Origin: Promethearchaeati archaeon
GTDB lineage: Archaea; Asgardarchaeota; Heimdallarchaeia; JABLTI01
Length of the DNA stretch: 10,522 bases
NCBI GenBank assembly: GCA_013166835.1
Contig: JABLTI010000099.1
Span: forward strand, 1-10,522
Direction: 5' to 3'
Below the pieces are notes generated by a model. It was not told where the DNA came from. It did not search any database and was given only the letters and a program-made list of their open reading frames with translations. Shown here in pieces: positions 1 to 10,114 of the stretch (position 1 is the stretch's first letter; each line of letters opens with the position of its first letter). A program made the position numbers and the translations under genes.

Positions 1-590
1 AGTGGTCCTTTTTTCAATCCCTTAGCAATTGCATAAATTTCAGCACTACCCTTTCTTGATGCTTTTGGTTTGTAAAAATAAACAAAATGAAATAATATCT
101 TCAGATTTGCTATAAAGTCTTCAAAGAGATCTCCCATAAATAATTTGCAGACGAATTTTCCTCCTCGTTTCAGGAACCCTGAAGCACACAATCTTAGTGC
201 TTGTTCTGTTAGATAGATTTGTCTTGCGTGATCTGTACTCCAATTTCCGGATACTTTTGGACTAATATCTGACAGGATTACGTCTACTGGATCACCTATG
301 AGTGTTTTTAGTCGTTCCTGTGTTTTAGGATCAGTGATATCTCCTTGTATTGCTATAACATTATCAATTGGTTCTAAGTAATCGAGATCAATTGCATACA
401 CCTTTCCAGTTGGAATTACTAGATGGCTTGCAACTTGAGACCAACCACCGGGAGCTGCTCCAACATCTATTACATAGTTTCCTACTTTGAAAACGTTGAA
501 TTTCTCATTAATTTGTATGAGTTTATATGAGGCTCTTGAGCGGTAGCCTTCCCTAACTGCCTCTCGATAATAGTTTAACTGATATCACAT
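1..590 (-). CDS. rlmE: RlmE/FtsJ-family rRNA 2'-O-methyltransferase (3' end outside the window; start anomalous)
   Basis: My translation: YYREAVREGYRSRASYKLIQINEKF...VIDVGAAPGGWSQVA...AIDL...QGDITD...DVILSDISPKVSG...FVCKLFMG...KPKASRKGSAEIY. The SAM motif and K-D-K-E tetrad are present. The frame is open from 584 to the window edge. The in-frame ATG at 590 is followed at once by TGA. Confidence 0.93.
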
Positions 591-694: not shown

Positions 695-1090
695 TTACTT
701 TTCTTCTTCCTCTTTCGGTTTGGAAAACAACCATTTTGAGAATAATGGGCAATCTACGGAGGATATAGGATTCCCTATATTACACCTATCAAGTTCATAA
801 CAGGTGAAACATGGACATCCGCCAATGTTATCCCATTGAATCATAAAGGTACTAGTCATTGATTTCCCTTCCAAACACTCATTTAGAAATCGTTTTACGA
901 AATAAGAACCATCTTTTGCTTTCAGCAGCTTGAATTCTTCTCTTACGGATTCATCCCTCAAGAATTTTTCAAGTTCTTTAAAGTTTACAGTTAGAACTTC
1001 AACTAAATCATCTGCAGCTATTTCGGTAACTCTGCGAGTATCAAACATTTCTTGCAGTAATTGCTTGAATTCCTTTGTTATAGCGATCAT
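695..1090 (-). CDS. TFE-beta / RNA polymerase III RPC34(C39)-like protein with C-terminal 4Fe-4S motif
   Basis: The C-terminal PCFTCYELDRCNIGNPISSVDCPLFSKWL has the Cx2Cx5Cx10C...WL pattern of RPC34/hRPC39 and crenarchaeal TFE-beta. The N-terminal part is the right size for a winged helix but is not clearly recognisable. Confidence 0.75.
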   Translation of the reverse strand: MIAITKEFKQLLQEMFDTRRVTEIAADDLVEVLTVNFKELEKFLRDESVREEFKLLKAKDGSYFVKRFLNECLEGKSMTSTFMIQWDNIGGCPCFTCYELDRCNIGNPISSVDCPLFSKWLFSKPKEEEEK

Positions 1091-1398: not shown

Positions 1399-2208
1399 TC
1401 ACCAAGTTGTGAATCTTTTGTATAATTTTGTTGGATATACGATAAGATAGGAAAAAGTAGCATCGGTTATGCCTTGAACGATATTCCATCCTGCGTATCC
1501 CCCACCAAAACTCAACAAAATTGTGGTCCAATCTGGATCAAAAACATTTACGAATTTCGGCGCCCAACCATTCAAATACATGAAAGCAGGGGCAAAAAGT
1601 AGAACATTCAAAAGAAACATTACAGTAAGTCGAGTTAGAATTGCTAGAACCATTAAGAAGACATAAACACCTATATGATTGAAGGTAGAAGATGAATATT
1701 CGAGTTTCTTAAAGAACTTATTTGATCGTTCTTTTCTTGAAACTACTTTTAGAACTATCCAAGGTATAACAAACATAATGGACGAAGCTATGAATTTAGG
1801 CCACATAGAAAGCCAACCAATACCCTGTTCACCAGGAAAAGCCATTATAGCTAAGCAACCCACAACTGCTGAAATTAAACCACTTCTTATACCAAAAACG
1901 AAAAAGGCTACAAGCATAGGGACAGCCATTATATCTAACCAAGTCATTCCAGGTGCAAAGGTAGGCCCCCAAAAGATGGATTCTAAAGTTGCATCCCAAA
2001 CAAAACCTATAAGTGCACTAAGACCACCAAGAATTGCTCCTGCAGCAATTTCTATGGTAATTGTTCTCCCTTTGTGTTCTTTCATTTCTGGTAAATGCTC
2101 TACAGTATGAAGATCGTGAACATCTTCTTTATTGATATTCTCTTTAGATTTTTCAGAGCATTCTTCTTTCTTTTGAAGATCCGTTTTTTCAGTAAATGTG
2201 GAACCCAC
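1399..2208 (-). CDS. ECF transporter S component (RibU/PanT-like vitamin-binding membrane protein)
   Basis: About six hydrophobic segments. EIAAGAILGGLS followed by WLDIMAVPMLVAFFVFGIRSG is typical of S components. GTG start is preceded by an SD-like GGGTGA. The first ~48 aa form a charged extension. Confidence 0.8.
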   Translation of the reverse strand: MGSTFTEKTDLQKKEECSEKSKENINKEDVHDLHTVEHLPEMKEHKGRTITIEIAAGAILGGLSALIGFVWDATLESIFWGPTFAPGMTWLDIMAVPMLVAFFVFGIRSGLISAVVGCLAIMAFPGEQGIGWLSMWPKFIASSIMFVIPWIVLKVVSRKERSNKFFKKLEYSSSTFNHIGVYVFLMVLAILTRLTVMFLLNVLLFAPAFMYLNGWAPKFVNVFDPDWTTILLSFGGGYAGWNIVQGITDATFSYLIVYPTKLYKRFTTW

Positions 2209-2260
2209 TTATGTCACCCAATTCGTGATAGTGTCTGTGTATTTATTTTTAGTCGATAAA

Positions 2261-2277
2261 TTATAAATAATATTTTC
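2261..2277 (-). promoter_or_regulatory. Candidate BRE/TATA of the S-component gene
   Basis: Minus strand GAAAATATTATTTATAA, ~55-70 nt upstream of the GTG start. Confidence 0.45.
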
Positions 2278-2299
2278 AATTACTCATAAATGAGTAATT
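2278..2299. promoter_or_regulatory. Palindromic operator candidate
   Basis: Perfect inverted repeat AATTACTCAT-AA-ATGAGTAATT (10-bp arms, 2-nt spacer) abutting the candidate promoter. Confidence 0.7.
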
Positions 2300-2335
2300 A
2301 TCCTCAAAGTTGATTAAGAAGGCAAGATATTGAGT

Positions 2336-2351
2336 AAAAATAAAAAATAAA
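2336..2351 (-). terminator. U-tract terminator candidate after rpl31e
   Basis: Minus strand TTTATTTTTTATTTTT, ~15 nt after the rpl31e stop. Confidence 0.45.
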
Positions 2352-2365
2352 GATGTAGAGGTGAA

Positions 2366-2740
2366 TTATTCATCCTCTTCTTCTTCAATATCTTCTTCGT
2401 CGGGTGGACGTAATTCGCCACGACCAGGTCTTCTTCTGACCTCTGGGACTCGTGCTTCAGCAGCAACTTTTCTTTCAACAAGGTAAAGTTCTACAATGCC
2501 TTCATCATCTTTAATGGCTCGCACACGAACCTTTCTCGGAGGTTTCTGAATACCTCGAGCCCAAATGAACTCATTTAGTTCATTATCAATTATGATATCT
2601 TCTGCCTTCATGTGCCTATAGATGAATTGCTTCATAATCCTAATGGCTCTTGGGGCTCTTTTTTGACGAGTAGATAATTTCAACTTCGGATAGAAGGGAA
2701 TTGTGTATATTCGTTCTTCTACCAGTTCATCTTCTGACAA
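2366..2740 (-). CDS. rpl31e: 50S ribosomal protein L31e (eL31) with a charged C-terminal extension
   Basis: ERIYTIP...KRAPRAIRIMKQFIYRHMK...IDNELNEFIWARGIQKPPRKVRVR signature; TTG start. Confidence 0.97.
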   Translation of the reverse strand: MSEDELVEERIYTIPFYPKLKLSTRQKRAPRAIRIMKQFIYRHMKAEDIIIDNELNEFIWARGIQKPPRKVRVRAIKDDEGIVELYLVERKVAAEARVPEVRRRPGRGELRPPDEEDIEEEEDE

Positions 2741-2816
2741 TTTTATTCACTCTCTTTGGTCGGTCTTTTCCTATTACCTATTTTAAATTTACTATTAGTT
2801 TTCATTCAGTTTTATA

Positions 2817-3062
2817 CTAAAAACTAACCTCATATTTCGCAAGGATAGTCTTAATATCACAAATTGTATTCATTGCAGTAATATCATCATCTGAAAGAAT
2901 AATATCGAAGTTTTGCTCTAGCTCGGAAATGATGACCAGGTGAGTCATGGAATCCCAAGCTTCATAATCTTTTCTTGATATTTCTTCTGTGAGTTCTTCT
3001 TTGGCGACGAGTAGTATTTTACTAACAATGTCTATGATTTTATCGTGGTTGTTTTCGCTCAA
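2817..3062 (-). CDS. Acyl carrier protein
   Basis: 81 aa and acidic, with WDSMTHLVIISELEQNFDI (Ser38 is the phosphopantetheine site). The TTG start overlaps the FkbH stop (TTGA). Confidence 0.92.
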   Translation of the reverse strand: MSENNHDKIIDIVSKILLVAKEELTEEISRKDYEAWDSMTHLVIISELEQNFDIILSDDDITAMNTICDIKTILAKYEVSF

Positions 3063-4915
3063 TCTTCTTTCACCGTCAGATATTTTGGAAAGTCTATGGG
3101 TTTCTTCAATTGTTTAAAGGACCATTTTATTGTTCCATCTGTTAATTCTTCTTCAACATCGAAGTTGTGATCTTTAAAGAAGTCTTTTGCCAGAGGATTC
3201 TTTTTAGTTGGTATATACTCAGCTTTTATTTCTTGTGCTTTCGCAGTTATTGCATCATTTATTATTTTCGTTAGAAATGCTGTTTCCACTTTTCTCCCAA
3301 TCACTCTACAACTCATTAGGAATGTGTCGATTTGCCATACCTTCTGATTTTCTTTGTTTACTACAGCAACCCCAACAATTCCTTCTTCTCCAAATTTGTC
3401 TTTTATCTCTAATGTGTAAATATTAAATTTCGCTGTCTTTTTATGCATCTCTACAACTTGGGTTTCAGTATAACGTCGGGTTGTTAAATTAAATTGATTT
3501 GTTCGATTTATTAGACTAGTTACTCTGGGCAGAGCAAATTTATCTGCTAGCTTGATGGTAGCAATGATTTCTAAAGTCTTGATAAACTCATCAATAGATT
3601 GTACTTTCTTCCGGATACCCTCTCTTTGTTTTCTGAAATAGTATTTTTCCCCTCGAGTCAAATCTTCCTTTGTTATTGCTAATGTGTTGAAATCATTTAA
3701 TTGCTCGAGAGTTTTCTTGTAAAGAGCAGGACTTTTCGGCAAATCAACCACTTTGACATCTGGTAATGCTTCTTTTACTCTTGCTCGTTCTACCGGATTA
3801 TCATCAAAGAAGACCATGCTGTCCAATCCAATATTGATTTCCTCAGCGAGCTCAATCATGTTTTGTACTTTATCATTCCAATTAATTCTGTGAGCAGCAA
3901 GATGTGTTTCTTTTATTTGCATGTAAGGATGTTTTTGAAAGACTTCTAAAGCATCTGCTTCGTTGTTTTTGCTGTTTACAGCTAAAATTATCCCTCTTTT
4001 GAAGAGACTTAATAGGGCTTTTTGAAAATCTACGAAATGGTTCCCAGGATAATTAATGTTAAGTTTGATCCCATCTAAACCGTCTTCTCCAATTATACCT
4101 CCCCATAAAGTGTTATCTAAATCTAGTACGATGCATTTCCTATTTCTTCCTTTCAAAGGTTTGATGTAACTCATCAAGCCATAGGAAACTGCTGGTAGGA
4201 ATTTCTCACTAAGTAAGAGTGACCCTCGGTAATACATTGGATAGTTGATGTATTCGTCTTTACCGAATCTGCTAGCGGTTTCATCAAAATCAAAAATGAA
4301 TATTGCACTATCATTTTGAAATTGAGTTTCTAACTTATCATTGATCATCCTGTAGAACCGTTTCAAACCAATTACTCTTTTTTTATCCAAAACTCCCATT
4401 GGTGAAAAGGTTGGTGAAATAAAATTACTAAAAATTATCATGGAATCTGTGCTTTCTGCTAATTTTGATAGAAGATCATTAAGTAATTCGACTATCCTGT
4501 CAATTTCCTCTACAATGATTTTTTCTTCGAGTCGAGTGAAATCAACAAGAAAATTCTCTTCTAATAAAGATTCGAGCTCAATGAAAAAGAATATTATTTC
4601 AGGTTTAAATTTATACAATTTACTTTTAACATCAATGATTTCTTCTTGAAATCTATTGAACGGTGCGACATATATTTCTGGGAAAAGTTCTTCCATTCTG
4701 CAATCAATATCAAGAAATGCTGCTAAGGGATCAATTGTGAAAGAACTTAGTAAAGCGATTTTGATTTTTTGATTTGCTGAGACATCTATTTTCGAGAAAT
4801 CGATCTTTTGTATCTGTTTGTATATTGACCAGTAATTAGAGTAGGATGGTTCCTCTTGAATTTTCTTTAGGAGTTCTTCTTGTTTTTCAAGTGGTGTTTT
4901 TTGAGGGGAATTCAT
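3059..4915 (-). CDS. fkbH: FkbH-like HAD-IIIC glyceryl-ACP synthase, long form with N-terminal extension
   Basis: KCIVLDLDNTLWGGIIGEDG, NSKN, FFDDNPVER, RTNQFNLT, DKFGEEGIVG and IDTFLMSCRV (conserved Cys). About 255 aa precede the HAD motif, including KIALLSSFTIDPL. Confidence 0.95.
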   Translation of the reverse strand: MNSPQKTPLEKQEELLKKIQEEPSYSNYWSIYKQIQKIDFSKIDVSANQKIKIALLSSFTIDPLAAFLDIDCRMEELFPEIYVAPFNRFQEEIIDVKSKLYKFKPEIIFFFIELESLLEENFLVDFTRLEEKIIVEEIDRIVELLNDLLSKLAESTDSMIIFSNFISPTFSPMGVLDKKRVIGLKRFYRMINDKLETQFQNDSAIFIFDFDETASRFGKDEYINYPMYYRGSLLLSEKFLPAVSYGLMSYIKPLKGRNRKCIVLDLDNTLWGGIIGEDGLDGIKLNINYPGNHFVDFQKALLSLFKRGIILAVNSKNNEADALEVFQKHPYMQIKETHLAAHRINWNDKVQNMIELAEEINIGLDSMVFFDDNPVERARVKEALPDVKVVDLPKSPALYKKTLEQLNDFNTLAITKEDLTRGEKYYFRKQREGIRKKVQSIDEFIKTLEIIATIKLADKFALPRVTSLINRTNQFNLTTRRYTETQVVEMHKKTAKFNIYTLEIKDKFGEEGIVGVAVVNKENQKVWQIDTFLMSCRVIGRKVETAFLTKIINDAITAKAQEIKAEYIPTKKNPLAKDFFKDHNFDVEEELTDGTIKWSFKQLKKPIDFPKYLTVKED

Positions 4916-5390
4916 TTTGAATCACTTCTTGAACTGCTTTATCTATATCATCCCAATTTTCATCTAATTTCTCTGCTTGATCTTGACTAATCACTAATGC
5001 CCAAGCAATCGCTGTTTTCTCAGTATGAGCAATACTAACTCTAATTGTTATTTTTTTCAATTGCTGACTGATTTCATCCAGTTTTTTATTGTTTTTGTCT
5101 TTAAAGTCTATTTTAGCAATTGGTTTTTTAGTTTTGTCATGTGATATAAAGACATGATATAATTCTATTTTTACAAATTCATTGATTGCTTTATAGACTG
5201 CTTCTTTGGCTGCGAATATTCCTGCAAAGTGTGGATGAGGATCTTTGTAGGATTGGCAGTATTTAGTTTCATAATCATTGAAGATTTTATTATAAAAACT
5301 TCGATGTTCGTCTATATTATACCGCTGGAATTTTTCTATTTCGATTATATCGATCCCAATTGACCAATTAGACAATGCTTTACCCTCCAA
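4887..5390 (-). CDS. acpS: Holo-ACP synthase (AcpS-type 4'-phosphopantetheinyl transferase)
   Basis: GIDIIE, FAGIFAAKEAVYKA and VSIAH motifs. Overlaps the fkbH start by 29 nt. Confidence 0.93.
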   Translation of the reverse strand: MEGKALSNWSIGIDIIEIEKFQRYNIDEHRSFYNKIFNDYETKYCQSYKDPHPHFAGIFAAKEAVYKAINEFVKIELYHVFISHDKTKKPIAKIDFKDKNNKKLDEISQQLKKITIRVSIAHTEKTAIAWALVISQDQAEKLDENWDDIDKAVQEVIQNEFPSKNTT

Positions 5391-5391
5391 T

Positions 5392-6255
5392 TTAAAATCG
5401 ACGTAAATAATCCCAAAAAGTGAAATTATCTATATCACCTGTTAATAAGCAACAAACTGGAGCATCATGTTTCCAGCTTTTGTGTTTTCGCCAATACTCT
5501 ACTGCTTCTGTTACAGATGGTACCCAAGCATTATGTTTATCCGCTTGCTCCAAGAATAATTTTAATCCATTTATGTATTCCCTTCGACCAATTCTTATTG
5601 GGTGCAAATCAAACATAACTACTCCATTTACTTCTTTTGCTTTTCTTAATTGAATTGTTAATGCTTTCGCAATCTGTTTATCAGAGAAATTGTATTTATC
5701 AATCATGAAGTCATCAGACCACTTGCATAGTGGAATACAAGTGTAAGTTGATTTCTTTCCATTTTGAAATTTGAAATTAAAAAAGTGATAAGTTTCCCGA
5801 TAAGATTGTTGGTAGCCTATTCCGATATCCCAAAGGAAATCAAATTTTTCCAACAGTCGTATTGTTGCTTCAGAATAATTGTTATATGGTGCTCGAAAAC
5901 CTTTGTAAGGTATCTTGTTTTTTTGAAATGCTTTTGTTGCTAAGTATAATTCTTGTTCAACTTGTTTTGGGGATAGGTGTTGATATCTCACGTGTTTATA
6001 ACCATGGATAGCAATTTCGTATGGATAGGATTTCAGAAATTCAGTATAATCCTGGTGTTTATCAGCAATAGATGCTACAAGAGGAAAAGTGAATCCAGCA
6101 TCGAACTCCTCTAATGAGGTAAACATTCGATCCAATAGTTTGTGGAAAGGTTGCATGTGAAAATAGAACATCCTGGCGGACTGTGCGAAGATACGACTTC
6201 CTCGTCTTTTTGCTAGATGTTTTATCCATGAAGTTAAACGACTAATTTTAACCAT
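5392..6255 (-). CDS. Polysaccharide deacetylase (CE4/NodB family), apparently circularly permuted
   Basis: EIAIHGYKH, GFRAPY and FDLHP motifs, with a motif-1-like LLTGDID at the C-terminus. ATG at 6255 (after an SD-like GGTGTGG) is preferred over TTG at 6267. Confidence 0.85.
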   Translation of the reverse strand: MVKISRLTSWIKHLAKRRGSRIFAQSARMFYFHMQPFHKLLDRMFTSLEEFDAGFTFPLVASIADKHQDYTEFLKSYPYEIAIHGYKHVRYQHLSPKQVEQELYLATKAFQKNKIPYKGFRAPYNNYSEATIRLLEKFDFLWDIGIGYQQSYRETYHFFNFKFQNGKKSTYTCIPLCKWSDDFMIDKYNFSDKQIAKALTIQLRKAKEVNGVVMFDLHPIRIGRREYINGLKLFLEQADKHNAWVPSVTEAVEYWRKHKSWKHDAPVCCLLTGDIDNFTFWDYLRRF

Positions 6256-6302
6256 AAACCACACCAAATATTGTTTTGTTATTTTATTATGGGAAATTAA
6301 TA

Positions 6303-6379
6303 CTTTATTAAACTATTTTTCGCTTAATACTTAGAGGTACTACACTTTATTGAACGTATTTTCATCAAAAGTTTTAATT
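6303..6379. promoter_or_regulatory. Divergent BRE/TATA candidates for the two arms of the cassette
   Basis: Minus strand CGAAAAATAGTTTAATAAAG (6303-6322); plus strand CAAAAGTTTTAATT (6366-6379). An SD-like GAGGT lies at 6418-6422. Confidence 0.45.
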
Positions 6380-6428
6380 GGTTATGTAAATATTTGATTA
6401 TAAAACGAGTCTCCTATGAGGTTTCACA

Positions 6429-6902
6429 ATGGGTAAGATTATTGGCAGAATTCTACGTATGATTGCTTGGAATGCTCCAATTTACCAATTCCGTGCGAGT
6501 TTATGGCGGAAATGTGGAGTGAAGATTGGTAAAAGGGTTTACGTTGGAAACCTAGTGTATTTTGATGGTGAATATCCCCACTTAATTACTTTGGAAGATG
6601 ACGTAAGTATTGGTCCTAGTGCATTGCTATTAGCTCATTCTGGTGGCAGTCCTTACCATTCGCAAACTGGAATTTTCAAGCAACTACCTAAACCCATTCT
6701 AATTAAGAGAGGTGCTTGGATTGGGTCAGGAGCAATAATACTCCCTGGCGTTACTATTGGTATTGGTTCAATCGTGTCAGCAGGAGCTGTTGTTAATAGG
6801 GATGTTCCCGATTTCAGTGTAGCAGTAGGTAATCCGGCTCGAGTGGTTTCTAAACTACCAAGACCAGGGGAAGCTGCAAAAGATACGGAGGAGAAAAAGT
6901 GA
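6429..6902 (+). CDS. Hexapeptide-repeat (left-handed beta-helix) acyltransferase, maltose/sugar acetyltransferase-like
   Basis: GVKIGKRVYVG...ITLEDDVSIGP...AH...IKRGAWIGSGAIILPGVTIGIGSIVSAGAVVNRDVPDFSVAVGNPARVV. Confidence 0.92.
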   Translation: MGKIIGRILRMIAWNAPIYQFRASLWRKCGVKIGKRVYVGNLVYFDGEYPHLITLEDDVSIGPSALLLAHSGGSPYHSQTGIFKQLPKPILIKRGAWIGSGAIILPGVTIGIGSIVSAGAVVNRDVPDFSVAVGNPARVVSKLPRPGEAAKDTEEKK

Positions 6903-7315
6903 AAATCAAAAATATTCATCATGTTGGTATAGCTGTTCCTTCTATAGAAGAAGCTCTAAAATTCCACCTAGAAGCTTTGGGGATGAAGCAAGTAACTGAT
7001 ATTGTTTTTGACGAATTACAGAAAGTAAAAGTTGTATTGTTGAGTCCAGAGGAAACAAATCATGAGAATTACAGCTATGTTGAGTTAGTGGAATCTGTAG
7101 GATCTTCACCTGTTGATCAAATACTGAAGCAAAGAAATCATCTTTATCATTATTGTATAGAAGTGTCAAACTTAGAAGAAACTCTTGAAAAAGTACGGAA
7201 AGAACATGCAATTATTGTTTTACCTCCTACACCTGCGAAACTTTTCAATGACAGAAGAATAGCTTTTATATGGACACCAGCTCAATACTTGCTAGAATTT
7301 TTGGAAAAGGGTTAA
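6899..7315 (+). CDS. VOC-superfamily protein, methylmalonyl-CoA epimerase-like
   Basis: IHHVGIAV, YVELVE, LYHYCIEV and LLEFLE give the H/E/H/E metal and catalytic pattern. GTGA overlap with the acyltransferase stop. Confidence 0.88.
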   Translation: MKIKNIHHVGIAVPSIEEALKFHLEALGMKQVTDIVFDELQKVKVVLLSPEETNHENYSYVELVESVGSSPVDQILKQRNHLYHYCIEVSNLEETLEKVRKEHAIIVLPPTPAKLFNDRRIAFIWTPAQYLLEFLEKG

Positions 7316-7418
7316 GATAAGCAATTGTGCTTTCCTAAAATCATCAGTTCGAATAAATAAAATAAGAAATAGAGCGAAGCCAATAAAGGCAATAACGATT
7401 CGATATAAGCTATCATGC

Positions 7419-7574
7419 TTAAACTTTCAAGTTGTTTCTTTGCCAATGTCTTCGTTTGGGATGTTGTCTAACATTTCCGCTAGTTTTCATTACAACCCAA
7501 GTTGGGACACCTCTAGCTCGTCTTGCTGCTTTTGCCATTCTAAGTTTTTTTGGATATGGTTTATTTCTAGCCAT
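7419..7574 (-). CDS. rpl39e: 50S ribosomal protein L39e (eL39); absent from the ORF track
   Basis: My translation: [51 protein letters not shown] (51 aa), with the VPxWVxxKT and RRHW signatures. Confidence 0.97.
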
Positions 7575-7589
7575 GTTGTTGTCCTTCTC

Positions 7590-7928
7590 TTACTTTCTTT
7601 TAAATTCAATGGTACTTTCTCTTTTACCCGATTGAAGCTTCTTTAAAATATCTATTAATTGTTCTTCTGTAATCGGACCTGGTAAATTACTCCTTGAAGC
7701 TATAGTAATCAACTGATTCTCTATGCTTTCCGCGAAATCCGGACGAGCCATACGAATGTTTGCTAATCGGTCTCTCGCTTTCGGAGTTAGGATCTGCCTT
7801 AGGATCATTGCTTTTTGGGCATCAATTTCTGCTTTTTTAGCAGCAACATCTGATTGAGCTTCTGCTTGCGATTGGATTTCAGCTTCTCTTTTTTTGCGCA
7901 ATTCTTCAAGCTCGCGATCTTCAGACAT
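7590..7928 (-). CDS. PDCD5/TFAR19-family DNA-binding protein (MTH1615-like)
   Basis: ELEELRKKR...ILRQILTPKARDRLANIRMARPDFAESIENQLI...ITEEQL. It sits in the usual position between rps19e and rpl39e. ATG at 7928 is preferred; the GTG at 7937 falls in the SD-like GTGAT. Confidence 0.95.
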   Translation of the reverse strand: MSEDRELEELRKKREAEIQSQAEAQSDVAAKKAEIDAQKAMILRQILTPKARDRLANIRMARPDFAESIENQLITIASRSNLPGPITEEQLIDILKKLQSGKRESTIEFKRK

Positions 7929-7960
7929 AATAATCACACATAAATTATGTATTTCTCACA

Positions 7961-8401
7961 CTAATACTTTTTGAGCTCAGGGAATTTCTCTTTAATTAAT
8001 GTCGCCGAGGATTTATCTAGTAAGGAACGCCCTTTAGCTGAGATTGTTCTTCCTTTACGAGATGATGTAATTAATCCTTCTGACTCAAGTTGCTGTAAAG
8101 CTTTACGTATAACAGCACCACTAGCTCTGGTTGATTTTTCTGGACTGTTGCGACCATGTTTTAAACCACCATATGCTTTCCGTAAATGTGAGGTGCCAAT
8201 AGGACCACTAACATAGACTTTTCTTAACAAAGATGCACAACGAACGAACCACCAATCAGGATTTTGTGGGGCGTGCTGCTTAAAGGATCCTGTCTTAACG
8301 TAACTAGCCCATTCAGGGGGAGTAATTTTGTTATACTTCTTAAGTTCGACTGCAATTGTTTGGATTAAATCCTCTGCAGGAACATCGTAAACAGTGGGCA
8401 T
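7961..8401 (-). CDS. rps19e: 30S ribosomal protein S19e (eS19)
   Basis: MPTVYDVPA...PPEWASYVKTG...DWWFVRCASLLRKVY...GPIG...YGG...SGAVIRKALQQLE...GRTISAKGRSLLD. Confidence 0.98.
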   Translation of the reverse strand: MPTVYDVPAEDLIQTIAVELKKYNKITPPEWASYVKTGSFKQHAPQNPDWWFVRCASLLRKVYVSGPIGTSHLRKAYGGLKHGRNSPEKSTRASGAVIRKALQQLESEGLITSSRKGRTISAKGRSLLDKSSATLIKEKFPELKKY

Positions 8402-8443: not shown

Positions 8444-9079
8444 CTATGCTCCGAGCCTTCTCTTCTTCGAGGTGGTTGCCCTCTCCGAGTCAGCATTGTT
8501 CATGGTCAGAGATAGATGCGTCTCAGCATCTTTGACATGTATAAAGACTTCTTCTTTATGCTTTGCCGATTGTGAGACTTTACCTTTATAATTCTTTCTT
8601 TTAATAGTTATTTTCTCGTTTTTGATTGTGAGTTTCCCAGAGTAGTAATCGTTTATCGCCAAGTTCACCATCATGAGTAAGTGGTTTCGGAGACTGTTGT
8701 GACCATAGTTCAATGATTCTACTAATCGTCTTAATTCCTTTGATTGATAAATGTAATTATAGAGTTTGAAAGCGGAATGTTGATTTTGCTCGATTGCTTG
8801 TGCTAATTGCTGGAAATCTATTTCACCTTTTTCTTTATCGTAACGACCTATCCTCTTGTATGGTTTCTTCCGACAAATGAGGGAAGCGAGGATGTCAGGA
8901 AAGCACTCCCGTAATTGGTAAGCGATTTCCTCAGCTGAATACAATGGTAAGGAGACATTGGTTTCGGGATTGAAGAGCGTCCAGGAAAGAAAACGAAGCT
9001 CGGAGCGAGTGAATCTGTATTTTGGGAGGGTTTGAGGATTGACCACACTATACTTGTGCCACGATGCTTCACTATCCAA
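8444..9079 (-). CDS. Hypothetical protein (211 aa, basic C-terminal tail)
   Basis: Long ORF that fills the gap and is co-oriented with its neighbours. SD-like GGTGA lies 7 nt before the TTG. No family recognised. Confidence 0.65.
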   Translation of the reverse strand: MDSEASWHKYSVVNPQTLPKYRFTRSELRFLSWTLFNPETNVSLPLYSAEEIAYQLRECFPDILASLICRKKPYKRIGRYDKEKGEIDFQQLAQAIEQNQHSAFKLYNYIYQSKELRRLVESLNYGHNSLRNHLLMMVNLAINDYYSGKLTIKNEKITIKRKNYKGKVSQSAKHKEEVFIHVKDAETHLSLTMNNADSERATTSKKRRLGA

Positions 9080-9178: not shown

Positions 9179-10114
9179 TTAATCTGCTTTTTGCTTCTTC
9201 TTTTTTCGATATTTCACGATTACTGGAATACTCACTGCAATAATTATTGTTGGAATAAGCACTGAAGAAACTATCAGTCCAATTGATGACAAGTAATCCT
9301 TATACGTACCAAGAGTATATCTTGGCAACCTGTAACCAACTAATTGATATTGATATTCCAGTGAAACTTTAACTGCTTGATCATTTAGAACACCCATAGT
9401 CCAACCTCGGAATCCAAAACCGGTAACAAGACCCGATACCTTATCAAAAGCAATATGGAAATTATTCCCAAACTCTACTTCTGCAAGATAATCAAAAGAA
9501 TACCCTATTGCAGGTCCATAAACACCACTTATCTCTCCCCCAAGCCAGCTTTCAAAATAAACAATATTATTTTTCTCTGAATATCTATAATTATATTCAA
9601 GTCCGGGATAATCTTGGGATACAGATTCGAAAGCTGAGAGGAAATCCTCTCCTAAATTCTCAAAGAATTCATGATTTTCAGCTGTAGGATTTATGTAGGG
9701 ATAGATGTTGAAATAAAGACCATTAGTGAAATTATGCATAGACCAAAGATAAACTGATCGATACACAATAATAGAGGTGTACCGCATGAAAAAGGGAACG
9801 AGGGTGGTATACCAATTCTCTAAATACCCAATAAAAAAAGATTCATTGCCGATTGTGAAATTCCCATTAATACCCCCTCCAACATAATTAACAGAGAAAT
9901 CTACTTTGGTTTTTGACGGATAATTAGTACCCTTAAAGCGAAATCCCTTTGCTGAGACAAAATTAGAACCAGATGCAAGATAGATTTTTGAATTCGTTAT
10001 TTTGTAAGTAGAGACATCACCAACGCTCAATTGAGAATGAACTGAGAAAGTTTCGGAAAAACAAAAAATACATAGAATGATTATTATTGATAGTAGTTTT
10101 ACTCTTCGCCTCAA
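9179..10114 (-). CDS. Secreted, C-terminally membrane-anchored surface protein (resembles the Heimdallarchaeia choice-of-anchor S family)
   Basis: Signal peptide MRRRVKLLSIIIILCIFCF; beta-rich body (VGDVSTYKI..., FDKVSGLVTG, VGYRLP); C-terminal TM helix plus KYRKKKKQK. The family assignment is from recalled resemblance only. Confidence 0.75.
   Translation of the reverse strand: MRRRVKLLSIIIILCIFCFSETFSVHSQLSVGDVSTYKITNSKIYLASGSNFVSAKGFRFKGTNYPSKTKVDFSVNYVGGGINGNFTIGNESFFIGYLENWYTTLVPFFMRYTSIIVYRSVYLWSMHNFTNGLYFNIYPYINPTAENHEFFENLGEDFLSAFESVSQDYPGLEYNYRYSEKNNIVYFESWLGGEISGVYGPAIGYSFDYLAEVEFGNNFHIAFDKVSGLVTGFGFRGWTMGVLNDQAVKVSLEYQYQLVGYRLPRYTLGTYKDYLSSIGLIVSSVLIPTIIIAVSIPVIVKYRKKKKQKAD

Follow-up and report, generated by a model that had tools for sequence, protein, structure and literature searches.

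The locus studied here raises the question of how six non-ribosomal genes came to lie between two ribosomal protein genes that are neighbors in most related archaea, and how the downstream gene might be transcribed in their presence. Relevant text of a published account of Asgard ribosomal clusters (PMC10833476) describes an S19e-COG2118-L39e-L31e core that is kept in the examined Asgard genomes except four. The window, by which we mean the whole 10,522-nucleotide stretch of DNA analyzed, holds this four-gene string complete, in one order and entirely on the minus strand. The same genes, order and orientation are therefore found as in the string described in that text, but in the window six non-ribosomal genes stand between L39e and L31e, an insertion that the text does not describe. 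The ribosomal genes and the elements next to them are as follows.

7961-8401, minus strand: rps19e, first gene of the string (PF01090, 176.6 bits; NF006811, 197.2 bits).
7590-7937, minus strand: PDCD5/COG2118-type dsDNA_bind gene (PF01984, 97.3 bits; NF003268, 114.9 bits).
7419-7574, minus strand: rpl39e, intact, the end of the upstream block (NF002316, 72.8 bits, model positions 1-51 of 51).
7316-7418, 103 nt: convergent spacer between rpl39e and the VOC gene, which forms the upstream junction; its minus strand carries a T-rich tract, TTATTTTATTTATT.
2366-2740, minus strand: rpl31e, intact, with a TTG start (NF002258, 97.5 bits against a cut-off of 68).
2336-2352, minus strand: oligo-T tract CTTTATTTTTTATTTTT directly past rpl31e, predicted to be its terminator.

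Judged from open reading frames and profile matches, 4,678 nt (2741-7418) separate rpl39e from rpl31e, and the direct adjacency of the two genes, normally a matter of tens of nucleotides, is broken. An initial annotation of this DNA had given the distance as about 4.7 kb, and had also described an LbH-VOC arm that meets rpl39e head-on; the VOC gene and rpl39e indeed converge across the 103-nt spacer. The cargo of the gap consists of four genes on the minus strand and two on the plus strand.

6899-7315, plus strand: VOC/glyoxalase-fold gene, methylmalonyl-CoA-epimerase-like (PF13669, 56.1 bits; TIGR03081, 55 bits, under its cut-off).
6429-6902, plus strand: LbH (left-handed beta-helix, hexapeptide) acyltransferase/acetyltransferase gene (PF00132, 40.7 bits).
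6268-6428, between the two arms: divergent deacetylase/LbH intergenic region with AT-rich, TATA-like runs, predicted to house the cassette's own promoters.
5392-6267, minus strand: NodB-family polysaccharide deacetylase gene (PF01522, 43.9 bits).
4887-5390, minus strand: AcpS-type 4'-phosphopantetheinyl transferase (PPTase) gene (PF01648, 50.3 bits).
3059-4915, minus strand: FkbH-type loader gene with FkbH_N, HAD-IIIC and FkbH domains (TIGR01686, 305.5 bits against a cut-off of 146.65; PF21211, 43.8 bits; TIGR01681, 69.6 bits).
2817-3062, minus strand: acyl carrier protein (ACP) gene, which ends the cassette's long arm (PF00550, 22.7 bits against a cut-off of 20.8).

Because the window is a short contig (10.5 kb) from a metagenome-assembled genome (MAG) with an estimated contamination of 6.8%, the split might be suspected to be a chimera of assembly or binning. 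This explanation is exceedingly improbable, given that three other species-level Heimdallarchaeota MAGs recorded as separate isolates (G002, G003 and G007) have both junctions too, as do JGI and Logan contigs. The initial annotation had proposed looking for sequence that crosses both junctions, and such sequence exists in several places. A single contig of G007 spans both, G002 and G003 each carry both on two contigs, and two JGI metagenome contigs carry the junctions. Logan contigs from three studies also bridge them, one covering positions 2000-8000 in one piece, with the Logan runs flagged as possible sources of the window DNA and hence not independent. The junctions are not an assembly artefact.

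The distribution of the split indicates which state of the locus is the unusual one. Of the 40 genomes of the window's class in which both rpl39e and rpl31e are present, 36 have the two genes 20-51 nt apart, and these 36 include six species of the window's genus and the sister genus (G011). Only the window's own genome (G000) and G002, G003 and G007 have the pair split, and in a tree of S19e, PDCD5, L39e and L31e these four species are monophyletic with support of 1.000 and have the empty-site pair G004 and G005 as their sister. Among 39 genomes picked by hand from other families, the pair is adjacent in 38, so that the wide conservation claimed for the string holds up, and a second, independent split of the pair is found in another Asgard family. 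Both flanks, S19e-PDCD5-L39e on one side and L31e-ECF-hyp131-rrmJ on the other, are collinear with those of the empty-site relatives, which identifies the event as an insertion instead of a general rearrangement. Only one type of cargo occupies the rpl39e-rpl31e spacer in the genus. Its breakpoints cannot be placed to the base, the empty-site spacers being unalignable with the filled flanks. The neighboring ECF-S-like membrane gene occurs as two deeply divergent alleles.

The cassette also exists as a block away from this site. In the sister genus (G011), the identical six-gene architecture, with VOC and LbH divergent from deacetylase-PPTase-FkbH-ACP, lies on another contig beside unrelated genes. 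A cassette orthologue is present in 24 of the 201 genomes of the phylum, in three families only, and most of the window's genus is without one (the seven genomes of the genus that have no orthologue are 64-92% complete). In the FkbH tree, the G000 and G007 proteins pair with that of G011 (100/98), followed by genus g4 and then by another class, an order in step with taxonomy. The composition of the cassette is host-like: its GC content (0.348) is close to the mean of the genome's genes (0.346), its tetranucleotide distance falls at the 22nd percentile of the genome, and its codon score, a comparison that the initial annotation had suggested, is in line with the genome at the 28th percentile. 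The dN/dS values of the cassette genes (0.08-0.21) show purifying selection. The insertion is old, as the initial annotation had supposed, because it is common to the four-species clade and because the cassette dS values (0.14-0.32) cover a span comparable to those of the flanks (0.09-0.29).

The occurrence of the block elsewhere in G011, the agreement of the FkbH tree with taxonomy, the host-like composition and the low dN/dS together argue for one old insertion of a lineage-internal block. We consider it likely that the six-gene cassette was inserted once in the ancestor of the clade, as a ready-made block from the same archaeal lineage, and that rpl31e has since been transcribed from its own promoter. 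The block would have entered the normally 20-51-nt spacer in the four-species ancestor, likely by illegitimate recombination or by recombination with a relative's DNA anchored on the conserved ribosomal genes, and no recombinase footprint is left. The S19e-PDCD5-L39e transcript would then end in the T-rich 103-nt spacer, where TTATTTTATTTATT on the minus strand is the predicted rpl39e terminator. Identity across this spacer is 84-86% in G003 and in G007; the G002 sequence has diverged, and no significant fold was found in the spacer.

A somewhat unlikely variant of these events is that the cassette was ancestral to the family, was relocated within the genome into the spacer in the four-species ancestor, and disappeared from the remaining lineages of the genus. 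The congruence of the FkbH tree with taxonomy (the g1 subclade joins G011, next comes g4, and another class follows) and a cassette composition indistinguishable from that of the genome are what such a history would leave, and the position of the g4 cassette 13-14 kb from rpl31e, in all four genomes with both genes on one contig, could hint at an old loose linkage. However, relocation presupposes one move and no fewer than three losses within the genus (G006; G008 and G010; G004 and G005), as opposed to a single gain. Furthermore, homologues of the genes that flank the G011 cassette are absent from the surroundings of the ribosomal cluster over 80 kb in G010 and 40 kb in G006, one weak CBS match aside, and the cassette and the ribosomal locus are unlinked in the other class (f10). 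As for the source of the inserted block, the balance tips slightly toward transfer from a related Heimdall lineage and away from relocation within the genome.

The initial annotation had seen no integrase, transposase or terminal repeat, and this was borne out within the window. Pfam and NCBIfam profiles detect no integrase, recombinase or transposase domain among the 15 window proteins, and a repeat search found only short scattered matches, with no terminal direct or inverted repeat and no target-site duplication shared by both junctions. The window also contains no tRNA or tmRNA that could serve as an attachment target and no Rfam match at gathering level, and neither junction spacer occurs a second time in the genome. 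The marks of a mobile genomic island or integrative element, namely a recombinase gene, repeats, an attachment target and deviant composition, are thus all absent from the window.

The one mobile element at this locus belongs to a relative. It lies at the downstream junction, where two short segments need to be distinguished.

2796-2816, minus strand: the 21 nt past the ACP stop; in alignments, a 3.26-kb TnpB/LAGLIDADG element of G007 is inserted between 2795 and 2796.
2741-2795, minus strand: 55-nt block with the TATA-like sequence TTTAAAATA (2779-2787), AAA before it, and the Shine-Dalgarno-like (SD-like) run GAGAGTGA; a predicted rpl31e promoter plus short leader.

The G007 element encodes a 397-amino-acid protein with OrfB_IS605 and Cas12f1-like TNB domains, features it shares with TnpB elements of the IS200/IS605 family. 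It is without a TnpA gene and pairs tnpB with a LAGLIDADG-like gene of 541 amino acids. The tnpB gene ends about 20 nt from the edge of the element, next to a palindromic run, and a homologous TnpB/LAGLIDADG pair is present in G000 on contig C137 (70% and 38% identity). The element lies outside the six-gene block; since its place is at the junction and it does not delimit the cassette, it offers no explanation for the insertion of the cassette.

The element also bears on the region in front of rpl31e. The initial annotation had placed rpl31e 76 nt behind the ACP gene, with a TATA-like sequence near 2779-2787 on the minus strand, and had left two routes of expression open: a promoter of its own or read-through from the cassette. 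The positions are correct (the 76 nt are 2741-2816, and TTTAAAATA lies at 2779-2787), and the evidence speaks for the first route. The 55-nt block is 100% identical in the window, G002, G003 and G007, compared with 84-94% for other spacers, and the 3.26-kb insertion in G007 falls exactly at its 5' edge, so rpl31e probably has its own promoter within 2741-2795. An A-rich, BRE-like run followed by the TATA-like box (2779-2790, minus strand) lies 38 nt before the TTG start; the box would drive transcription from a predicted start near 2752-2760. The TATA-like motif alone says little, because positional enrichment of such words upstream of genes is weak in this AT-rich genome. Also, rpl31e is the least diverged gene here (dS 0.09), and some of the perfect match across the 55 nt may thus stem from a locally low divergence or from recent recombination. 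The start codon of rpl31e is TTG in the window and ATG in relatives, whether of its own genus, of the sister genus or of genus g4.

If rpl31e had no promoter of its own, it would be read from the deacetylase-PPTase-FkbH-ACP transcript, and loss of the cassette would silence it. The short ACP-rpl31e distance, the shared orientation and the lack of an oligo-T tract in the intervening 76 nt make such read-through possible in addition to independent transcription, but as the only source of rpl31e mRNA it is quite unlikely. In G007, 3.26 kb, including the opposite-strand 541-amino-acid gene, separate ACP from an intact rpl31e that is preceded by the same 55 nt, and that block has its TATA-like box and SD-like run in place. 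Read-through from tnpB into rpl31e is possible in G007. The proposal in the initial annotation that transcriptional dependence locks the cassette in place is not upheld, given that the G007 insertion parts ACP from rpl31e and leaves the conserved block unharmed. Retention of the cassette needs no lock, because selection at a dN/dS of 0.08-0.21 suffices as an explanation.

An adaptive placement, in which co-regulation of the cassette with ribosome synthesis would tie envelope or glycan acylation to growth rate, is very improbable. The arrangement has been kept across four species, and in genus g4 the cassette adjoins an information-processing cluster with ValRS, RpoB, Spt5 and L10. Nevertheless, the two arms have a divergent intergenic region of their own (92-94% identity in G003 and in G007) and are convergent with rpl39e. 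No linkage of the cassette to such genes exists in the sister genus or in another class, and most of the genus does without it.

The genes themselves provide hints regarding the product. The gene content of an FkbH-type glyceryl-ACP loading module is complete: the FkbH domain is joined to a HAD-IIIC phosphatase part, and the ACP is stand-alone and accompanied by a PPTase. The PPTase gene probably starts a few codons inside its open reading frame, because the equivalent frame in G007 has a stop in its first codons and then an ATG. FkbH homologues are described in the relevant text of PMC7489565 as making glyceryl-S-ACP out of 1,3-bisphosphoglycerate, and the tetromadurin polyketide modules Mad7/Mad8 and Mad14/Mad12 treated there likewise place an FkbH-like enzyme beside a stand-alone ACP. 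Unlike the tetromadurin system of that text, the cassette is without a polyketide synthase, a FabH-like gene and the dehydrogenase/methyltransferase set. FkbH and ACP are accompanied here by a NodB-type deacetylase, an LbH acyltransferase and a VOC-fold protein, a combination suggestive of sugar acylation. FkbH would charge ACP with a C3 unit derived from glycerate, which would serve to acylate a de-acetylated amino sugar.

Prokaryotic chromosomes have integration hot spots that are flanked by core genes, and the present locus resembles them in that essential genes border variable DNA. Allelic replacement of the next gene (ECF-S-like) and an IS insertion add to the likeness, whereas the changing cargo of a true hot spot was not seen, with one cargo type only in this genus. 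A bolder, rather doubtful reading is that conserved ribosomal genes act as homology anchors through which related Heimdall species exchange accessory DNA (the cassette, the two ECF-S-like alleles and the TnpB/LAGLIDADG pair), and that the insertion forced a new rpl31e promoter and the change from ATG to TTG. If true, anchors and rewiring would make this a dated natural experiment on what becomes of an archaeal ribosomal operon after it is cut. Overall, the event is a real but fairly ordinary genome rearrangement and brings to light no new type of element or mechanism. Its value lies in being a clean, datable case, with empty and filled sites within one genus, and in the 55-nt element as a specific candidate for an Asgard promoter.

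A multi-gene accessory block has cut a ribosomal gene pair that ranks among the most conserved in archaea. The cell appears tolerant of the cut, with the upstream block likely terminating in the T-rich spacer and the downstream gene likely on a new promoter. The relevant text of PMC10833476 contains a comparable case, an IbpA/HSP20-family gene inserted in the S10-spc cluster of Thor- and Odinarchaeota. In both, a conserved ribosomal run is cut by lineage-specific cargo and the downstream ribosomal gene acquires a new upstream region. The present insertion differs from that case in lying at another junction, in being larger, a biosynthetic block of several genes whose two arms diverge, and in being limited to four species. 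It adds to the published picture in which Asgard archaea, and Heimdall lineages in particular, have looser ribosomal clusters.

The window is contig C260 in its entirety (10,522 nt), from a MAG of 3.56 Mb in 260 contigs, with 84.75% completeness and 6.79% contamination; its genes were assigned by scanning six-frame ORFs against Pfam and NCBIfam. Between rpl39e and rpl31e lie six genes, here called the cassette, and the measured distances agree with the initial annotation: 4,678 nt separate the two ribosomal genes (given as ~4.7 kb), the LbH-VOC arm meets rpl39e head-on, with VOC and rpl39e convergent over 103 nt, and rpl31e follows ACP after 76 nt.

Genes of the window, from right to left (ORF plus Pfam/NCBIfam match unless stated otherwise)
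9179-10114, minus strand, choice-of-anchor S protein
8444-9079, minus strand, 211-aa gene without family assignment (ORF only)
7961-8401, minus strand, rps19e
7590-7937, minus strand, PDCD5/COG2118-type DNA-binding protein
7419-7574, minus strand, rpl39e
6899-7315, plus strand, VOC-fold protein
6429-6902, plus strand, LbH acyltransferase
5392-6267, minus strand, NodB-type deacetylase
4887-5390, minus strand, AcpS-type PPTase
3059-4915, minus strand, FkbH-type enzyme (TIGR01686, 305.5 bits against a cut-off of 146.65)
2817-3062, minus strand, ACP
2366-2740, minus strand, rpl31e
1399-2208, minus strand, ECF-S-like membrane protein
695-1090, minus strand, 131-aa gene without family assignment (ORF only)
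3-401, minus strand, rrmJ, 3' part

Two of these genes deserve comment. For the PPTase ORF, the TTG annotated as its start is questionable; in a sister species that also carries the cassette (G007), a stop stands among the equivalent first codons and is followed by ATG (MANWSIG...), and the true start in the window is probably a TTG about five codons further in. The 211-aa gene upstream of rps19e has a GC3 of 0.45, above that of all 1,691 proxy genes, and the lowest codon score. Beside rps19e in G002, G003 and G007 it has no counterpart within the stretches fetched, and only partial matches of 43-50% were found, in G008 and G010 of the same genus.

The unusual nature of this arrangement is evident from a survey of 41 genomes (the source genome G000 and 40 relatives of its class), which were searched with the window's rpl31e and rpl39e. 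Both genes were found in 40 of them, G001 (64% complete) having neither, and in 36 of the 40 the pair lies on one strand of one contig with a spacing of 20-51 nt. These 36 comprise six species of the same genus (G004, G005, G006, G008, G009 and G010), the sister genus G011 and all 29 members of other families; the only exceptions in the class are G000 and its sister species G002, G003 and G007. The rpl31e family was also run over 201 genomes of the phylum, and local profile searches were applied to the 2 kb on either side of rpl31e in 40 further genomes, which were hand-picked from 150 listed rpl31e rows to spread over families and thus are not a random sample. Here the pair is adjacent at 38 of the 39 loci with both genes, so that the adjacency assumed as the normal state is borne out at both levels. 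The single exception, G042 of another Asgard family, has 1.3 kb between rpl39e and rpl31e, holding a CxxCxxCC-domain gene on the opposite strand (339 aa; L087:626-1955). In G053 of the same genus (L078:1-1958), a CxxCxxCC-domain gene also lies upstream of rpl31e and is followed by a radical-SAM gene rather than rpl39e. Thus, the pair is almost invariant, yet among about 80 genomes at least two independent splits have occurred. A published study notes that all but four of the Asgard genomes it examined retain the S19e-COG2118-L39e-L31e core, and describes ribosomal clusters as looser in Asgard archaea, especially in Heimdall lineages (PMC10833476).

When the fetched stretches were searched by tblastn with all 15 proteins of the window, the empty site was found to read S19e-PDCD5-L39e-L31e-ECF-hyp131-rrmJ. 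All four split genomes retain this order with the six cassette genes added between L39e and L31e, on a single contig in G007 and with each junction on a separate contig in G002 and G003. The same flank order in empty and filled genomes confirms an insertion rather than a general rearrangement. In a tree of concatenated S19e, PDCD5, L39e and L31e, the four split genomes form one clade (support 1.000) whose sister is the empty-site pair G004 and G005, so one insertion on the stem of the clade explains the pattern. Both junctions are bridged by Logan contigs from three studies, one record covering 2000-8000 in a single piece, although the runs are flagged as possible sources of the window DNA and are not independent evidence; the junctions also occur on two JGI metagenome contigs. 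No contig joining across the cassette was seen among the Logan contigs examined.

The route of insertion has left no footprint. A Pfam scan found no recombinase or transposase domain in the window, no terminal repeats were found there and ARAGORN reported no tRNA, in keeping with the earlier view that integrase, transposase and terminal repeats are absent. The only Rfam match in the window at E <= 1 is rhtB, whose 25 bits fall far below the gathering score of 55. The 76-nt spacer between ACP and rpl31e (2741-2816) and the 103-nt spacer between rpl39e and VOC (7316-7418) have no other copies in the genome, show no similarity to the cassette flanks of G011 or of g4, a genus of another family, and fold no better than shuffles (z +0.05 and -0.52). 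The short length and high variability of the empty-site spacers prevent the breakpoints from being placed to the base. The 7-mer TAGTAAA, present both in the spacer of G004 and at the 5' end of the conserved block before rpl31e, could mark the old spacer, a weak hint that was not used, since by a rough estimate such a match would arise by chance about one time in five.

More suggestive is the gene downstream of rpl31e. The ECF-S-like gene exists as two types in the four split species, with 37-40% identity between types. The copies of G000 and G002 are 93% alike and those of G003 and G007 91% alike, and the latter type shares more identity with G010 and G011 (59-64%) than with the sister species. 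Across the four species, the genes next to it show 90-99% identity.

Copies of the ECF-S-like gene
1399-2208, minus strand, in the window
L014:3806-4501, in G007
L026:1177-1884, in a fetched relative's stretch
L027:1626-2432, in a fetched relative's stretch

This looks like allelic gene replacement or trans-species polymorphism, and the neighbourhood is recombinationally active. The pattern fits replacement of the ECF-S-like gene by recombination anchored in the conserved flanks, which makes the same route plausible, without proof, for the cassette.

As to where the cassette came from, its composition gives no sign of foreignness. Its genes have a pooled GC of 0.348, where the 1,691 proxy genes average 0.346, its codon score lies at the 28th percentile, and its tetranucleotide distance ranks at the 22nd percentile among 400 randomly placed windows of the same size; the codon-usage comparison called for by the initial annotation therefore leaves the cassette indistinguishable from its genome. 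The same architecture, with VOC and LbH divergent from deacetylase-PPTase-FkbH-ACP, occurs in G011 on a different contig, between an alpha/beta-hydrolase gene and a caspase-domain gene, and a slightly different arrangement occurs in g4. FkbH orthologues (E <= 1e-100) are present in 24 of 201 phylum genomes, in three families only, and in five of the 12 genomes of the family (the four split genomes and G011). The FkbH tree (27 rows, after two partial rows of less than 550 aa were dropped and the partial genes of G002 and G003 left out) follows taxonomy, grouping G000 and G007 with G011 (100/98), then g4, then another class. Together, this tree, the host-like composition and the copies in G011 and g4 point to a block of lineage-internal origin.

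A single gain of the block from a related lineage needs fewer events than ancestral presence followed by three losses and a relocation, yet with incomplete MAGs and an FkbH tree congruent with taxonomy either history may apply. A search for a closer donor in metagenomes returned nine loci, two of them 94% identical with the same junctions and the rest at 40-45%, and a search of genome contigs returned six, namely four contigs of three sister MAGs, one Nitrosopumilales archaeon and one Adlerbacteria bacterium. In g4 the cassette lies 13-14 kb from rpl39e-rpl31e in all four genomes with both loci on one contig; chance linkage this close is unlikely, though the pattern was noticed post hoc. The g4 cassette (L022, L023 and L024) adjoins genes for ValRS, RpoB, Spt5, L10, FtsY, prefoldin and eIF6.

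Tracing an ancestral site through the genes flanking the G011 cassette proved a dead end, with the G000 carriers on a doubtful contig. Its TPP-enzyme and aldehyde-dehydrogenase genes are found in G000 at C217:537-3666 (87% and 83% identity) and in none of the eight other genus genomes searched. C217 is probably mis-binned or recently acquired, because it starts only 537 nt before the pair. No G011 flank genes were found near the ribosomal cluster of G010 (80 kb) or G006 (40 kb). A second, distant FkbH-like gene in G000 (C104:2677-3747), also seen in G004 (C187), G012 (C38) and G033 (C52), has 33-38% identity to that of the window and presumably is part of another carrier-protein module.

Insertion of the cassette parted rpl31e from its usual upstream neighbour, and the sister species offer clues to how the gene is now expressed. 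The 55 nt before its TTG start (2741-2795) are identical in all four split species. Conservation is lower elsewhere: the 103-nt spacer shows 84-86% identity in G003 and G007 and could not be aligned in G002, and the 161-nt divergent spacer between deacetylase and LbH (6268-6428) is 92-94% identical. A caveat is that no gene of the region has diverged less than rpl31e itself (dS 0.09). Within the 55-nt block, AAA precedes the TATA-like word noted earlier, TTTAAAATA (minus strand, 2779-2787), and 38 nt separate this motif from the start codon; a GAGAGTGA run lies closer to the start, at a distance of 8 nt. G007 has a 3,256-nt insertion (L014:5102-8357) whose position corresponds exactly to the boundary between 2795 and 2796. 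It encodes a 397-aa TnpB (OrfB_IS605, 67.2 bits; Cas12f1-like TNB, 86.1 bits) and, divergently on the opposite strand, a 541-aa LAGLIDADG-like protein. Falling at the edge of the block, this insertion shows that rpl31e can do without ACP immediately in front of it and that what has been kept as a unit is the 55-nt block. The proposal that read-through into rpl31e locks the cassette in place is not supported: the same insertion parts ACP from rpl31e with the block kept. A counterpart of the TnpB/LAGLIDADG-like pair lies in G000 at C137:9963-12882 (70% and 38% identity), and C246 and C107 show partial matches at the DNA level; TnpA was not seen in the modules of G007 and G000.

Of the two sources of rpl31e transcription originally proposed, an own promoter is likely, judging from the invariant 55 nt and the G007 insertion. 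Transcription would begin within the block, near 2752-2760, and yield a short leader. Read-through from ACP may add to expression, because no oligo-T tract lies between the genes. T-rich runs downstream of rpl39e and of rpl31e would fit archaeal terminators. Genome-wide enrichment of TATA-like words was set aside as promoter support, since these words become only slightly more frequent at -48 to -32 upstream of 1,566 proxy genes. All four split genomes start rpl31e with TTG, and its start codon is ATG in G011, g4 and the remaining members of the genus; TTG was rejected as a mark of the split, since some genomes of other families in which the pair is adjacent (L066, L067, L072 and L088) likewise have TTG-only starts.

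The cassette genes are under purifying selection, a sign that the cassette is in use. Between G000 and G007, dN/dS is 0.19 for ACP, 0.11 for FkbH, 0.08 for deacetylase, 0.11 for LbH and 0.21 for VOC. Cassette dS is 0.14-0.32 against 0.09-0.29 for the flanking genes, a similar range, so the cassette diverged in step with its flanks. PPTase (93% nucleotide identity) was left out of the dN/dS comparison because the G007 stop in the first codons of the frame used makes its value invalid. Given the deacetylase and the LbH acyltransferase as partner enzymes, the cassette is predicted to act in acylating a de-acetylated amino sugar.

The locus is valuable mainly as a dated insertion for which both empty and filled sites are available, and for its 55-nt block, a testable Asgard promoter candidate. 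The event itself is a further example of a kind already known, as accessory genes inside ribosomal clusters are among the features reported for Asgard archaea in the study cited here (PMC10833476).
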